Part shown: positions 44,720 through 53,184 of the stretch, in pieces | Numbering within the stretch: position 1 is the stretch's first letter | Layout: each line of letters begins with the position of its first letter | Assembly: GCA_903916675.1 (NCBI GenBank) | Contig: CAIWXQ010000002.1 | Coordinates: 24,421 to 88,420, forward strand | Source of the DNA: an uncultured bacterium | Lineage (GTDB): Bacteria > Verrucomicrobiota > Kiritimatiellia > RFP12 > CAIWXQ01 | Reading direction: 5' to 3' | Length of the DNA: 64,000 bases | Notes under the pieces: model-generated | Seen by the model: only the letters and a program-made list of their open reading frames with translations | Database searches by the model: none | Told to the model about the DNA's origin: nothing | Program-made: the position numbers and the translations under genes

Positions 44720-44923
44720 ATGGTTGGTGCATCGGTGCAGACAGGCGCGACGGCGGGCACGAACCGCTCCAGCCGGCGCAAGCGCCGCGGACAGGCGATG
44801 ATCGAATACATCGTCGTGTTTGTCGCCCTGTTTGCCACGGTGATCTCGCTGGCGGTCCTCCTGTACGCCGTGCGACAGCAATCCAACCGGACGCTCGACC
44901 TGGTCGCCTCGGATTATCCGTAG
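44720..44923 (+). CDS. Flp-type (type IVb, Tad) prepilin, long basic leader
   Basis: 67 aa. ...RRKRRG|QAMIEYIVVFVALFATVISLAVLL fits the Flp G/XXXXEY processing motif plus a hydrophobic helix. The mature part is about 43 aa. Confidence 0.7.
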   Translation: MVGASVQTGATAGTNRSSRRKRRGQAMIEYIVVFVALFATVISLAVLLYAVRQQSNRTLDLVASDYP

Positions 44924-44960
44924 CGACCGACGCAGCGAAAACAGGAAAAGGAGCCAGAAC

Positions 44961-45197
44961 ATGCACACACGCTTCGGCAACCGGCGCGGCCAGACAATGG
45001 TCGAGTACATCATTATTGTCGTCCTGATCGCCATCGCGCTGATCGTCCTCTTCTCCAAGCTGAGCAAGGCTGTCGGCACAAAGGTCGCAGGCGCCACTTC
45101 CTCGCTCGACGCCACCGCGGGCGGCGAAGCCGTCACAGCCCTCAACAACATCGACGAAAACAGCCTGAAGAACCTCAAAGAAACGGGCATCCAGTAG
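44961..45197 (+). CDS. Flp-type prepilin, short leader and extended C-terminus
   Basis: 78 aa. MHTRFGNRRG|QTMVEYIIIVVLIAIALIVLF. The mature part is about 68 aa. Confidence 0.8.
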   Translation: MHTRFGNRRGQTMVEYIIIVVLIAIALIVLFSKLSKAVGTKVAGATSSLDATAGGEAVTALNNIDENSLKNLKETGIQ

Positions 45198-45225
45198 CCT
45201 GGGAACAGGTTCGGAACGGAACGGC

Positions 45226-49640: not shown

Positions 49641-49667
49641 TCTCCCGCACCGGACAGGGTTCCCTCC

Positions 49668-51401
49668 TTGCTGTACCTTGAAATCCAGAGTCCCAGCCAG
49701 CCGGCCAGCCGTTTCGAGCTACCCTCGGGGAGCTACACGATCGGCCGCAGCGATGCCTGCAAGATCCGCCTCCGCCATGCGGGGGTCAGCGAACGTCATG
49801 CCCTCCTCTCCGTGCGCGACACCGGCGTCTGGATCGAGGACCTCCACGCCAGCAACGGCACCTTCCTGGACGACGAGCGCATCGAAGGGCGTGTTCCCAT
49901 GCGCCCCAACCAATGCCTGTCCATCGGCCCCTTCCTATTACTGCTTCAGGACACTCCGGCCAACACGGGGTCTGCGCCCGCGCCGGCAAAACCCGCGGCC
50001 GAGGTGACGCCACCGCCGCCGCCGCCAGCCCTTGCCGGCGCTTACCACGGCACCGGCCATCTGCATGCACGCACCGCGCCGCCGCGCGACCCGCAACTGG
50101 CCATCCGCCGCGAGATCAAGAACCAGATCCACCGCGAGGTCGTCCAGCGCCTCGACATCAAGCGCATGACCGCCGCACGCGTGGACGCCGCGGAACTCCA
50201 GCAGCGGGCGCGCGAAACCATCCATCTCGTGATCGAGGAGGTCCGCCAGCGCGAGCGCCTGCCGCCGGGCATCGACCCCGCGCGCCTCGCCGAGGAGATC
50301 TGCAACGAGGCGCTGCGCCTCGGCCCCATCGAGGAGTTCCTGGCGGACGAGTCCGTCACCGAGGTCATGGTCAACGGCCCGCGCCAGATCTTCATCGAGC
50401 GCAACGGCCGCCTCGAACTGACCGGCCAGGACTTCATGGACGAATCCTCGGTGCAGGCGATCATCGAGCGCATCGTCGCACCCATCGGCCGGCGCATCGA
50501 CGAAAGCCAGCCGTACGTGGACGCGCGCCTACCCGACGGCTCGCGCGTCAACGCCATCATCCCGCCGCTGTCGCTCTCCGGCCCCTGCATCACCATCCGA
50601 AAGTTCTCCAAGCACGCCTTCACAGAGTCGGACTTCGTCCGCTTCGGCACCTGGACCCAGGACATGGCCGACTTCCTGCGCATCTGCGTGCTCATGCGCA
50701 AGAACATCGTGGTTTCCGGCGGCACCGGCTCCGGCAAGACCTCGCTGCTCAATGTCCTCAGCAGTTACCTGCCGCCCCAGGACCGCATCCTCACCATCGA
50801 GGACGCGGCGGAACTGCGCCTCAACCAGCCGCACGTCATCCGCCTCGAGGCCCGGCCACCCAACATCGAGGGGCGCGGCGCCATCACCATCCGCGACCTC
50901 GTACGCAACGCCCTGCGCATGCGCCCGGACCGCATCCTCGTGGGCGAATGCCGCGGCGGCGAGGCGCTCGACATGCTGCAGGCCATGAACACCGGACATG
51001 ACGGCTCGCTCACCACCGTGCATGCCAATTCGCCGCGCGACGTCGTCTCCCGCCTCGAAACCATGGTGCTGATGTCCGGCATGGATCTCCCCTCGCGCGC
51101 CATCCGCGAGCAGATCGCCTCGGCCATCGACCTGATCGTCCACGAGGCCCGCCTCAGCGACGGCAGCCGCAGGGTCTCCGCCATCTCCGAGATCGTCGGC
51201 AGCGAAGGCACCCAGCTCGTCATGCAGGACATCTTCGTCTTCCAGCAGACCGGCCTCGACGAGAACGGCCGCGTGCTCGGCCACTTCCGCGCCACCGGCG
51301 CTGTTCCCACCTTCCTTGAGAACCTCAAGTCGCGCGGCCTTGCGCTCGACCCGACCATGTTCCAGCCGGAGCGTGCGGCCGGCGGCGGAGGCCGCACATG
51401 A
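49668..51401 (+). CDS. cpaF: CpaF/TadA secretion ATPase with an N-terminal FHA domain
   Basis: 577 aa with a TTG start. FHA: YTIGRSDACKIRLRHAGVSERHALLSVRDTGVWIEDLHASNGTFLD. Pro/Ala linker. ATPase core with Walker A VSGGTGSGKTSLLN, plus RPDRILVGECRGGEA and GHDGSLTTVHAN. Confidence 0.88.
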   Translation: MLYLEIQSPSQPASRFELPSGSYTIGRSDACKIRLRHAGVSERHALLSVRDTGVWIEDLHASNGTFLDDERIEGRVPMRPNQCLSIGPFLLLLQDTPANTGSAPAPAKPAAEVTPPPPPPALAGAYHGTGHLHARTAPPRDPQLAIRREIKNQIHREVVQRLDIKRMTAARVDAAELQQRARETIHLVIEEVRQRERLPPGIDPARLAEEICNEALRLGPIEEFLADESVTEVMVNGPRQIFIERNGRLELTGQDFMDESSVQAIIERIVAPIGRRIDESQPYVDARLPDGSRVNAIIPPLSLSGPCITIRKFSKHAFTESDFVRFGTWTQDMADFLRICVLMRKNIVVSGGTGSGKTSLLNVLSSYLPPQDRILTIEDAAELRLNQPHVIRLEARPPNIEGRGAITIRDLVRNALRMRPDRILVGECRGGEALDMLQAMNTGHDGSLTTVHANSPRDVVSRLETMVLMSGMDLPSRAIREQIASAIDLIVHEARLSDGSRRVSAISEIVGSEGTQLVMQDIFVFQQTGLDENGRVLGHFRATGAVPTFLENLKSRGLALDPTMFQPERAAGGGGRT

Positions 51402-52279
51402 ACATGGTCTGGCTCATCGACGCCTGCGTCGGCGGCAGCGTAGCCGGCCTTGCGTTCGTTTTCCTGCGCGCCTTCACGGCCGGCACCCAAGCCTACGCCG
51501 ACGAGCACGCGCAGCAGACCGCCCGCAACTTCGAGGACATCTTCCTCTTCATCCCGCCCCGGCGCATCGCCGAGATCGCCTGGGCCTGCGCAGCCACGGT
51601 CTTCCTCCTCGTGGCCTGGGTCTTCTTCCGGATCGACAATCCGACCTCCACCACGGTCGGCCTCGTGCTCGGCGTGGCCTTCGGTCTGGCCGCCATCCGC
51701 CTGCCCGACCATGTGCTCGTCCTGCTTCGCGAGCGGCGGCGCGTGCGCTTCAATCTCCAGCTCGTCGACGCCCTCTCGCATATGAGCAACGCGCTCAAGG
51801 CCGGCTTCAGCATCAACCAGGCCTTCGAAACCATCGTCGAAAACGGCGAGAGCCCCATCGCCCAGGAGTTCAGCCTCTTCCTGCAGCAGATCCGCGTGGG
51901 AGTAAGCTTCAATGAGGCGCTCACCAACATGGAGCAGCGCGTCGGCAGCGACGACCTCACGCTCGTCTGCACCTCGATCGACATCGCCCGCCGCACCGGC
52001 GGCAATCCCACCGAGATCTTCGACAAGATCAGCCTCACCATCCGCGAGCGCATGCGCATCGAAAGCCGCGTGCGCACCCTCACCGCCCAGGGGCGCCTGC
52101 AGGGAATCATCGTCGGCGGCATGCCCATTCTCCTCGGCGTCGTCCTGACCTTCCTGCGCCCCTCGCTGATGCTGCCGTTTCTTTCCTCCTTCGTCGGCAT
52201 GGTCTCCGTGGTCGTCGTGGCAATCCTGCTGACCATCGGCGCACTGATCATCCGCAAGATCATCCGGATCGACGTATGA
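51398..52279 (+). CDS. tadB: TadB-like inner-membrane platform protein (T2SS-F family)
   Basis: 293 aa. ATGA overlap with cpaF. T2SSF-like helical domain between TM segments. Confidence 0.8.
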   Translation: MNMVWLIDACVGGSVAGLAFVFLRAFTAGTQAYADEHAQQTARNFEDIFLFIPPRRIAEIAWACAATVFLLVAWVFFRIDNPTSTTVGLVLGVAFGLAAIRLPDHVLVLLRERRRVRFNLQLVDALSHMSNALKAGFSINQAFETIVENGESPIAQEFSLFLQQIRVGVSFNEALTNMEQRVGSDDLTLVCTSIDIARRTGGNPTEIFDKISLTIRERMRIESRVRTLTAQGRLQGIIVGGMPILLGVVLTFLRPSLMLPFLSSFVGMVSVVVVAILLTIGALIIRKIIRIDV

Positions 52280-53184
52280 ATGCCATCGCCACATTCTGCG
52301 CGTGCTGCTGGGGTGTCGCGCTCGGCGGCTTTGCCTGGTGCTGCCTCCAGGTTGCGCGCGAGATCACCTACGTCACGCTGGCGGATGGCCGCCGCCAGGA
52401 GCGCTCCATCCCCTTTGTCCTGCGCCTGCTGCTGCCGCTGGCCGGCAACGTATTCCCCCTTGTCTCGCACCCCTCATTCGCCCGTACGCGGGAGCAGGCC
52501 GACCGCCGGCTCGTGGCCGCCGGGTTCGACGGCGTCCTCGACGGCCGCGAGTTCCTGGCCCTCAGGTTCCTCGTGCCCATCACGTTCGGCACGCTCTGGT
52601 TCTGCCTGCTATACGGACTCACCCAGGCTTTCCCCTCCCTCGAGGAGAATCTCTTCTGGTTCACCCTGCTGGGCGTGCTTTTTTTCGCCCTCTACCCCAG
52701 TCTTTGGCTCAAGCAGGCGCTGGGCACGCGCCACCGCGCCATCCAGCGCGCGCTGCCGTTCGTGCTCGACCTGCTGACGCTCTCGGTCGAGGCTGGCATG
52801 GATTTCATGAGCGCGCTCCAGCGCAACTGCGAGAGCCGCCGGCTCGACCCCCTTAACGAGGAACTGATCCGCATGATCCGCGAGATTCAGCTCGGCACCA
52901 CGCGCCGCACCGCGCTCGGCAACATGTCCCGCCGCGTAGACCTGGCCGACCTGCGCTCCGTGACCTACGCGCTCATCCAAGCCGATGAGCTCGGCGTCAG
53001 CATTGGCGCCATCCTGCGCATCCAGGCCGACCAGATGCGCCAGCGCCGCTTCGACCGCGCCGAGCGCCTTGCCAACGAGGCACCGGTCAAGCTCCTCCTG
53101 CCGCTGATGCTCTTCATCTTCCCCTGCGTCTTCATCATCCTGCTGGGCCCCATCCTCCAGCAGTCTCTCGGCCGGTTCTTCTAA
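52276..53184 (+). CDS. tadC: TadC-like inner-membrane platform protein (T2SS-F family)
   Basis: 302 aa. ATGA overlap with tadB. LPFVLDLLTLSVEAGMDFMSAL is typical of T2SSF. Confidence 0.8.
   Translation: MNAIATFCACCWGVALGGFAWCCLQVAREITYVTLADGRRQERSIPFVLRLLLPLAGNVFPLVSHPSFARTREQADRRLVAAGFDGVLDGREFLALRFLVPITFGTLWFCLLYGLTQAFPSLEENLFWFTLLGVLFFALYPSLWLKQALGTRHRAIQRALPFVLDLLTLSVEAGMDFMSALQRNCESRRLDPLNEELIRMIREIQLGTTRRTALGNMSRRVDLADLRSVTYALIQADELGVSIGAILRIQADQMRQRRFDRAERLANEAPVKLLLPLMLFIFPCVFIILLGPILQQSLGRFF

Follow-up and report, generated by a model that had tools for sequence, protein, structure and literature searches.

A conserved FHA-class Tad pilus cassette without a neighbouring secretin in diderm Kiritimatiellia

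Can a Tad (type IVc) pilus work in a bacterium with an outer membrane when no secretin is encoded beside its assembly genes? The question is raised by a ten-gene Tad/Flp-type locus at positions 44720-53184 of a 64-kb stretch of DNA from an uncultured bacterium of the class Kiritimatiellia, the whole of which is referred to here as the window. Bacterial Tad systems are regarded as having originated with the gain of a secretin, and the secretin is considered the universal exit for type IV filaments in diderm bacteria (PMC6668835). What is new here is a conserved Tad cassette of a lineage in the Planctomycetes–Verrucomicrobia–Chlamydiae (PVC) group, belonging to the class in which the motor ATPase CpaF carries a forkhead-associated (FHA) domain, that never carries its secretin. 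A widespread and conserved diderm lineage whose Tad core is never accompanied by a secretin represents a natural test of the secretin rule. The locus probably encodes that core of a split, Kil-like Tad pilus of the FHA class which lies in the inner membrane and periplasm, with the missing parts supplied in trans, a reading that we favour with considerable reserve.

The sequence-only reading had described a Tad locus in a lipopolysaccharide (LPS)-building diderm and had recognised neither secretin nor TadZ nor prepilin peptidase there or elsewhere in the window; two kinds of profile scan agree with it. Pfam scans of essentially all sizeable open reading frames (ORFs) in the window returned no Secretin, Peptidase_A24 or ParA-like protein. 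Local hidden Markov models (HMMs) were trained on the secretins, A24 peptidases and TadZ proteins encoded within 80 related loci, with representative seeds verified by Pfam. In those loci they picked up 34 secretin ORFs, about 50 TadZ proteins and many peptidases, and in the 64-kb window nothing for any of the three families. Nor does a secretin, peptidase or TadZ appear in the Pfam gene tables of the flanks, which reach about 10 kb past each window end. For TadZ, the negative covers the locus, the window and these flanks, the rest of the genome not having been searched. Judging from its gene content, the host is an LPS-making diderm represented by a Kiritimatiellia metagenome-assembled genome (MAG): KdsA (391 bits), KdsB (285 bits) and LptB (345 bits) in the window score above curated cut-offs, and LptA-, LptC- and BamB-like proteins give weaker matches. 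The RpoB cluster at 90% identity is named 'Kiritimatiellia bacterium'.

Not all of these absences carry the same meaning, and a survey of related loci was used to weigh them. A CpaF scan with one genome per species gave 80 GTDB loci (L003-L082), 68 of which had enough upstream sequence to be scored; 19 encode an FHA-CpaF and 49 a plain CpaF. TadZ was adjacent to or fused with CpaF in all 49 plain loci and in none of the 19 FHA loci, so that its absence is a trait of the FHA subclass. An FHA domain on CpaF and TadZ are mutually exclusive in the 68 scored loci, a clean and testable rule suggesting that FHA stands in for TadZ as the hub of recruitment or regulation. TadZ and CpaF are even joined in one ORF of 716-754 amino acids (aa) in Bdellovibrionales, Oligoflexia and Omnitrophota, of which the L057 example (740 aa) was confirmed with Pfam. 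An A24 peptidase near cpaF is found in 5/19 FHA-CpaF loci and 20/49 plain loci; in-locus peptidases are missing from 43 of the 68, and the sharing of prepilin peptidases among systems is known (PMC6668835). Secretins behave differently: one lies near cpaF, typically directly upstream, in 16/19 FHA-CpaF loci (compared with 13/49 plain loci); the FHA-class loci that possess it belong to Proteobacteria, Myxococcota and gut Kiritimatiellae/Lentisphaerae. The three FHA-class loci without a secretin are the Kiritimatiellia cassette of L003, L004 from Lentisphaeria and L071 from an unclassified MAG. Among the missing parts named in the sequence-only reading, the lack of TadZ and of the peptidase is normal for this subclass. 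The absence of the secretin from the locus, consistent across the clade, is the distinctive feature.

The cassette itself is not peculiar to the window. The identical ten-gene order occurs in more than 20 independent loci with unrelated flanks, with intact ORFs and protein identities of 36-81%, which shows that it is not a chance ORF pattern. It was found on contigs of up to 247 kb in ENA, JGI, NCBI and Logan assemblies and in 20 further metagenome loci; the nearest GTDB genome (L003) carries it with a CpaF 77% identical to the window copy, and the order is also kept where the protein encoded at 48048-48782 has its most distant listed relative. No secretin, A24 peptidase or TadZ occurred in any cassette context examined. 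Flanking genes vary (ackA/pta with lnt, Rrf2 with a hybrid-cluster protein, der, RNase Y and CBM9), and the cassette is therefore a conserved unit; its recurrence with intact ORFs indicates a functional unit under selection. That the gene order might be common and already characterised in the lineage had been considered from the start: it is indeed conserved in Kiritimatiellia, but the arrangement is uncharacterised, and a literature search returned no paper on Tad, Flp or secretins in Kiritimatiellia. The sequences are metagenome-assembled, and genes could in principle have been lost at contig breaks or by mis-assembly or wrong binning. We regard such an artefact as extremely improbable, given that the uninterrupted order with its tight or overlapping junctions was obtained independently, from different samples, in the four assembly sources named above.

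ORFs were listed over positions 43000-55500, and families were assigned with Pfam and NCBIfam. Ten plus-strand genes, predicted to be co-transcribed as an operon, fill 44720-53184 exactly where the sequence-only reading had placed them, and its description of packed, co-directional Tad genes with ATGA overlaps is borne out. The overlaps at 51398 (cpaF/tadB) and 52276 (tadB/tadC) were verified, and the remaining intergenic gaps measure 17-37 nucleotides (nt), 27 nt of which separate cpaB from cpaF; the exception is a gap of 166 nt ahead of the Tad-domain gene if that gene starts at 46055. All ten genes have the high third-position guanine plus cytosine (GC) content of real genes, in sequence of 61-69% GC. 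A scan for promoters and terminators was uninformative, as the counts equalled the shuffled expectation. Family scores likewise uphold the names given earlier to CpaB, FHA-CpaF, TadB, TadC and the Tad-domain protein. CpaB/RcpC, the inner-membrane-anchored periplasmic ring protein (48816-49640), matches PF16976 with 83.7 bits and TIGR03177 with 142 bits (cut-off 71). The Tad motor ATPase FHA-CpaF (49668-51401) combines FHA (PF00498, 56.3 bits) at residues 23-87, a Pro-rich linker and T2SSE (PF00437, 220 bits) at residues 217-491. The FHA signature GR, SxxH, NG is visible in its translation, and among NCBIfam models the TadA family scores highest (TIGR03819, 348 bits), narrowly missing its cut-off of 373. 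The FHA-intrinsically disordered region-CpaF architecture is a recognised class III, reported mostly from betaproteobacteria (PMC12019362). The platform proteins TadB (51398-52279) and TadC (52276-53184) match T2SSF (PF00482) with 59.1 and 59.7 bits, and their genes are translationally coupled to cpaF. One subclade of cassettes (L087:15388-16287; L112; L111) appears to have a single T2SSF gene, and a SpoU methylase gene comes next in L087. A protein of ~120-140 aa directly follows tadC in L004 (L004:13591-14019) and in about 40 other loci from many monoderm and diderm phyla; the Kiritimatiellia cassette lacks it.

The 5' half of the cassette encodes the pilins, and these bear on the missing peptidase. 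The first gene, flp1 (44720-44923), encodes a Flp-type prepilin whose leader ends in RRG and whose mature part, of ~43 aa, begins with QAMIEY; it has no Pfam match. The second, flp2 (44961-45197; RRG|QTMVEY), reaches 28.9 bits with Flp_Fap, below the cut-off of 32.2. The earlier assignment of both as Flp prepilins consequently gains little from Pfam, but it is supported by motif conservation: G|QAMIEY with its hydrophobic helix is kept at the flp1 position in 12 Kiritimatiellia cassettes with the 5' end present, and G|QTMVEY at the flp2 position wherever that end is present, with weak Flp_Fap matches among flp2 homologues. Two further genes had been called TadE-like. For gene 3 (45226-45888; G|QAMIES), which has a class-III signal sequence, homologues at the same position match TadE (PF07811), although the window copy has no Pfam match. 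Gene 5 (47497-48030; G|QAMIEL) has the signal motif and no Pfam or NCBIfam match, and is pilin-like only at its N-terminus. Genes 3 and 5 are not paralogues, as hhalign aligned residues 1-26 only and the globular parts are unrelated. Between them lies the gene for a TadG-like large pilin-like protein of 474 aa (46055-47479), which matches Tad (PF13400) with 32.4 bits at its N-terminus. Five pilin-like N-termini appear in identical order in every cassette in which this stretch is present; four have the form G|Q-x-x-x-E, and the TadG-like protein has G|Q-x-x-x-F, lacking Glu5. Because these predicted cleavage signals are conserved and no cassette encodes a peptidase, the peptidase would have to act in trans, and it is on this part of the proposed split that the evidence is strong.

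A precedent for such a split exists in the Kil system of Myxococcus xanthus. As in the window, the Kil motor ATPase carries a fused FHA domain at its N-terminus, TadZ, TadD and RcpB are missing, and CpaB, two platform proteins, a Flp-type pilin (one major) and pseudopilins are present. The published description gives an FHA-fused KilF as single ATPase, no TadD, RcpB or TadG, and genes in two clusters that are expressed together; the Kil peptidase is dispensable, probably as PilD substitutes for it (PMC8460266). The two systems are not the same. The secretin KilC and peptidase KilA adjoin the Kil ATPase, whereas the window ATPase sits with the pilin and platform genes, and the TadG-like protein is present in the window and not in Kil. 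The window CpaF is ~45-51% identical to Myxococcota copies, and the Kiritimatiellia cassettes occupy a separate branch of the neighbour-joining tree described below. Kil-like systems have been reported as restricted to predatory deltaproteobacteria. The window host, in contrast, is a PVC-group polysaccharide degrader, and nothing in the sequence indicates predation. If the secretin is indeed supplied in trans, a split, FHA-regulated Kil-type architecture would extend well beyond predatory deltaproteobacteria.

Other Tad systems delimit what is unusual about the window. Class III loci of Beta- and Gammaproteobacteria (L016 and L020 from Acidithiobacillus, L008 from Thauera; architecture in PMC12019362) share the FHA-linker-CpaF, the lack of TadZ, the order cpaB ... 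cpaF-tadB-tadC and often the lack of an in-locus peptidase; unlike the window, they have a CpaC/RcpA-type secretin directly between cpaB and cpaF. Within the class itself, a gut and rumen Kiritimatiellae locus (L010, L114, L115; GCA_017450695.1) also has FHA-CpaF, CpaB, TadB/C, Flp and TadE-like proteins and no TadZ, in the order cpaB, secretin, FHA-cpaF, tadB, tadC, FHA protein, double-FHA protein, flp, A24 peptidase, TadE. It differs in having a secretin (PF00263) with a pilus N-terminal domain, the A24 peptidase and two large multi-FHA proteins. Identity between the CpaF of this locus and that of the window is only 48%, the two lie on separate branches, and no protein of the 48048-48782 type is present. 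Since this locus is fully equipped, members of the class Kiritimatiellia can make Tad secretins. The canonical Tad/Cpa systems (Aggregatibacter tad, Caulobacter cpa, Pseudomonas rcp/tad) share the G/XXXXEY Flp motif, TadE/G-type pilins, RcpC/CpaB, TadA/CpaF, TadB and TadC with the window. They add TadV/CpaA, RcpA/CpaC, RcpB/CpaD, TadZ/CpaE and TadD and have an ATPase without FHA, all of which is missing or different here.

When CpaF cores are compared in a rough neighbour-joining tree, most FHA-class CpaFs fall together and the Kiritimatiellia cassette copies make up one clade with L004 as sister. Such a clade would fit one event in which the locus was deprived of its secretin. The grouping of the secretin-less cassettes is equally what would be expected if a Kiritimatiellia/Lentisphaeria clade had lost the secretin altogether and kept a truly secretin-independent Tad derivative, either a periplasmic short endopilus or piston or a pilus with a non-secretin route through the outer membrane. 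We consider this unlikely, although it is the rival that has to be taken most seriously. A non-secretin route would use the TadG-like head, the two-domain periplasmic protein encoded at 48048-48782, the CpaB C-terminus and, in some genomes, FHA-membrane and PEGA proteins. The last two are encoded by a gene pair that recurs beside three cassettes: upstream in L089 (L089:5974-8600) and downstream in L090 (L090:17122-19793) and L004 (L004:14016-17038). In L004 and L089 there is a 4-nt overlap between the two genes; in L090 they lie 20 nt apart. Their products are an FHA-domain protein of ~430-560 aa and a PEGA-domain protein of ~445 aa, the latter a predicted lipoprotein in L004; the FHA partner of L089 and L090 resembles the FHA protein that follows FHA-CpaF in Myxococcota loci, where CpaF is the presumed KilF orthologue. 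The pair is a candidate envelope-spanning accessory module, and its recurrence speaks for the secretin-independent alternative. However, no additional FHA-domain protein is encoded in the window, and the pair is missing near window-type cassettes. A literature search returned no paper linking PEGA domains to pili. As the pair changes sides or is absent, accessory modules evidently move relative to the core.

Two proteins of the cassette had been proposed in the sequence-only reading as replacements for the missing parts, and this idea gains no support from the structural models, which are confident and contain no secretin-like barrel. The TadG-like protein has at least 681 homologues, one of them named 'Tad domain-containing protein [Kiritimatiellia bacterium]'. 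Its AlphaFold2 model, with a predicted local distance difference test score (pLDDT) of 80.3, has a long pilin-like N-terminal helix, a helical bundle and a beta-rich mixed alpha/beta head; no PDB match was obtained by fold (Foldseek, E<=1e-3) or by sequence profile. The tail of the family is near-invariant, Gly-rich and His-terminated (GGGGGxGGGxxxGH), and Cys208, Cys425, Cys428, Cys454 and many Trp residues are invariant. The cassette-specific predicted periplasmic protein (48048-48782) has a signal peptide and no lipobox, and its AlphaFold model (pLDDT 83.5) consists of two tandem alpha/beta domains. The family counts 42 close homologues and, at E<=1e-3, at least 488 cluster representatives, and it always holds the same cassette position, also in the most distant match checked. 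No PDB match was found with Foldseek at E<=1e-3 or by sequence profile, and neither the window copy nor 40 distant members matched Pfam. Both proteins were rejected as stand-ins for a secretin, pilotin or peptidase, having no barrel, lipobox, polytopic membrane topology or support from PDB or Pfam. For the secretin-independent alternative these results cut both ways. The Tad cassette carries three conserved lineage-specific components without a known fold, which speaks for it; on the other side, neither unassigned protein appears in its model large or barrel-like enough for an outer-membrane channel. In either case, two uncharacterised protein families tied to the cassette are defined, that of the 48048-48782 protein and that of the TadG-like protein.

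The window CpaB aligns to domains D1-D2 of Pseudomonas aeruginosa RcpC (PDB 9gzr), whose C-terminal hairpin touches the secretin (PMC12307814). The Kiritimatiellia cassette CpaBs share a charged C-terminal motif of ~30 aa, LPRVDFxxIQxEIxxLNxxRQxxLL (49551-49640 in the window), which is also recognisable in Lentisphaeria L004. Because the RcpC hairpin contacts the secretin and the cassette motif differs, an altered outer partner is hinted at, and the difference is suggestive and nothing more. The length of the tail was discarded as a proxy for secretin binding: tails of 30-38 aa also occur in the secretin-bearing loci L010, L013 and L026, which in turn weakens the CpaB tail as an argument for a secretin-independent machine.

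Several observations weigh against the supply of the missing parts in trans. Most secretin-linked CpaBs end in a strand-like 'vEvIrG'-type motif and differ in this from the helix-like end of the cassette CpaB. The secretin has a fixed place upstream of cpaF in 16 of the 19 FHA-class loci, and its absence here could reflect a real loss. No secretin was found in the ~84 kb of contiguous sequence around the cassette, and no A24 peptidase in the locus, the window and the ~10-kb flanks, the rest of the genome not having been searched for either. Nor was there a secretin in the available flanks of the other cassettes, which extend up to 10 kb and belong in many cases to short contigs. The uniformity of this absence across all cassette contexts examined also speaks for the secretin-independent machine. 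On the other hand, the cassette already needs an unlinked peptidase, so that missing neighbours do not amount to missing functions, and no non-secretin outer-membrane route is known for diderm type IV filaments (PMC6668835). Three things together point, with weak to moderate force, to a secretin encoded elsewhere: the Kil precedent, the dependence on a trans peptidase and the shifting positions of the accessory modules. That a diderm PVC clade, comprising Kiritimatiellia and at least one member of Lentisphaeria, has truly dispensed with the secretin in favour of an endopilus or a new lineage-specific route is a claim to which we assign a still lower probability than to the secretin-independent machine set out above. 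If the secretin is truly absent, however, the cassette would represent a new mode of pilus function within the diderm envelope or of passage across it.

Under the split, Kil-like arrangement that we favour, a prepilin peptidase (A24) encoded elsewhere would cleave the G|Q-x-x-x-E leaders of Flp and the minor pilins. FHA-CpaF, seated on the TadBC platform, would polymerise Flp through the CpaB ring, and the minor pilins could prime or cap the fibre. Comparative evidence speaks strongly for these first steps. The FHA domain would take over the recruitment or regulatory role of TadZ, probably by reading phosphothreonine signals; we hold this replacement with moderate confidence. The fibre would exit via a secretin encoded elsewhere, which either belongs to a gene block of its own, as in Kil, or also serves another type IV filament system.

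The 3' neighbourhood of the cassette raises a further possibility, namely that it arrived recently as a mobile element or by horizontal transfer, for instance as the secretin-less type that monoderms have, and was inserted next to a tRNA gene; it would then be incomplete in this host and possibly non-functional. The cassette ends ~510 bp from a tRNA-Asn gene (53697-53771, minus strand), with a spacer from 53185. A JGI contig of another sample (3300022555; L093) is 99.99% identical to window positions 53695-64000, and the homology stops exactly at the tRNA-Asn 3' end. Beyond this point, in L093:1-1626, an ORF of 124 aa and a large serine recombinase of 555 aa replace the spacer and tadC. The recombinase junction at the 3' end identifies the tRNA-Asn gene as an integration hotspot beside the Tad cassette, and this, with the flanking genes that differ between genomes, is what recommends the mobile origin. 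Such an origin is nevertheless very unlikely. The GC content of the cassette is unremarkable and matches its surroundings, no tRNA-derived direct repeat bounds it or occurs elsewhere in the window, and its treatment as an island integrated at tRNA-Asn was accordingly rejected. Monoderm Tad loci (Actinomycetota, Bacillota, Chloroflexota) resemble the window in being secretin-less, with a compact set of pilin, CpaB, ATPase and platform genes. In every monoderm-type locus examined, however, TadZ adjoins a CpaF without FHA, whereas the window has an FHA-CpaF, no TadZ and an LPS host, and within the FHA class the CpaFs of the cassettes make up a clade of their own, distant from the TadZ-linked CpaFs of monoderms. 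Ten intact ORFs at the observed range of identities across many genomes would imply long vertical maintenance under selection.

Other parts of the window are of interest in their own right. Upstream of the cassette by ~1.8 kb, a plus-strand gene (39108-42914) encodes a protein of 1268 aa that has two DUF3857 domains besides its transglutaminase core, and a GDSL-family hydrolase of 437 aa (42992-44305, minus strand) adjoins it; neither is conserved beside the cassette in other genomes. Housekeeping genes of the window include rpoBC, ribosomal proteins, dnaG and phosphotransferase system (PTS) enzyme I, in addition to kdsA, kdsB and lptB. Abhydrolase_1 (MetX-like) and MetW domains are joined in one protein by the plus-strand ORF at 1882-4053, which spans at most 723 aa; a look-up of the 723-aa form returned no record, and the true start is probably downstream, because the gene tables of related contigs call proteins of 614-617 aa.

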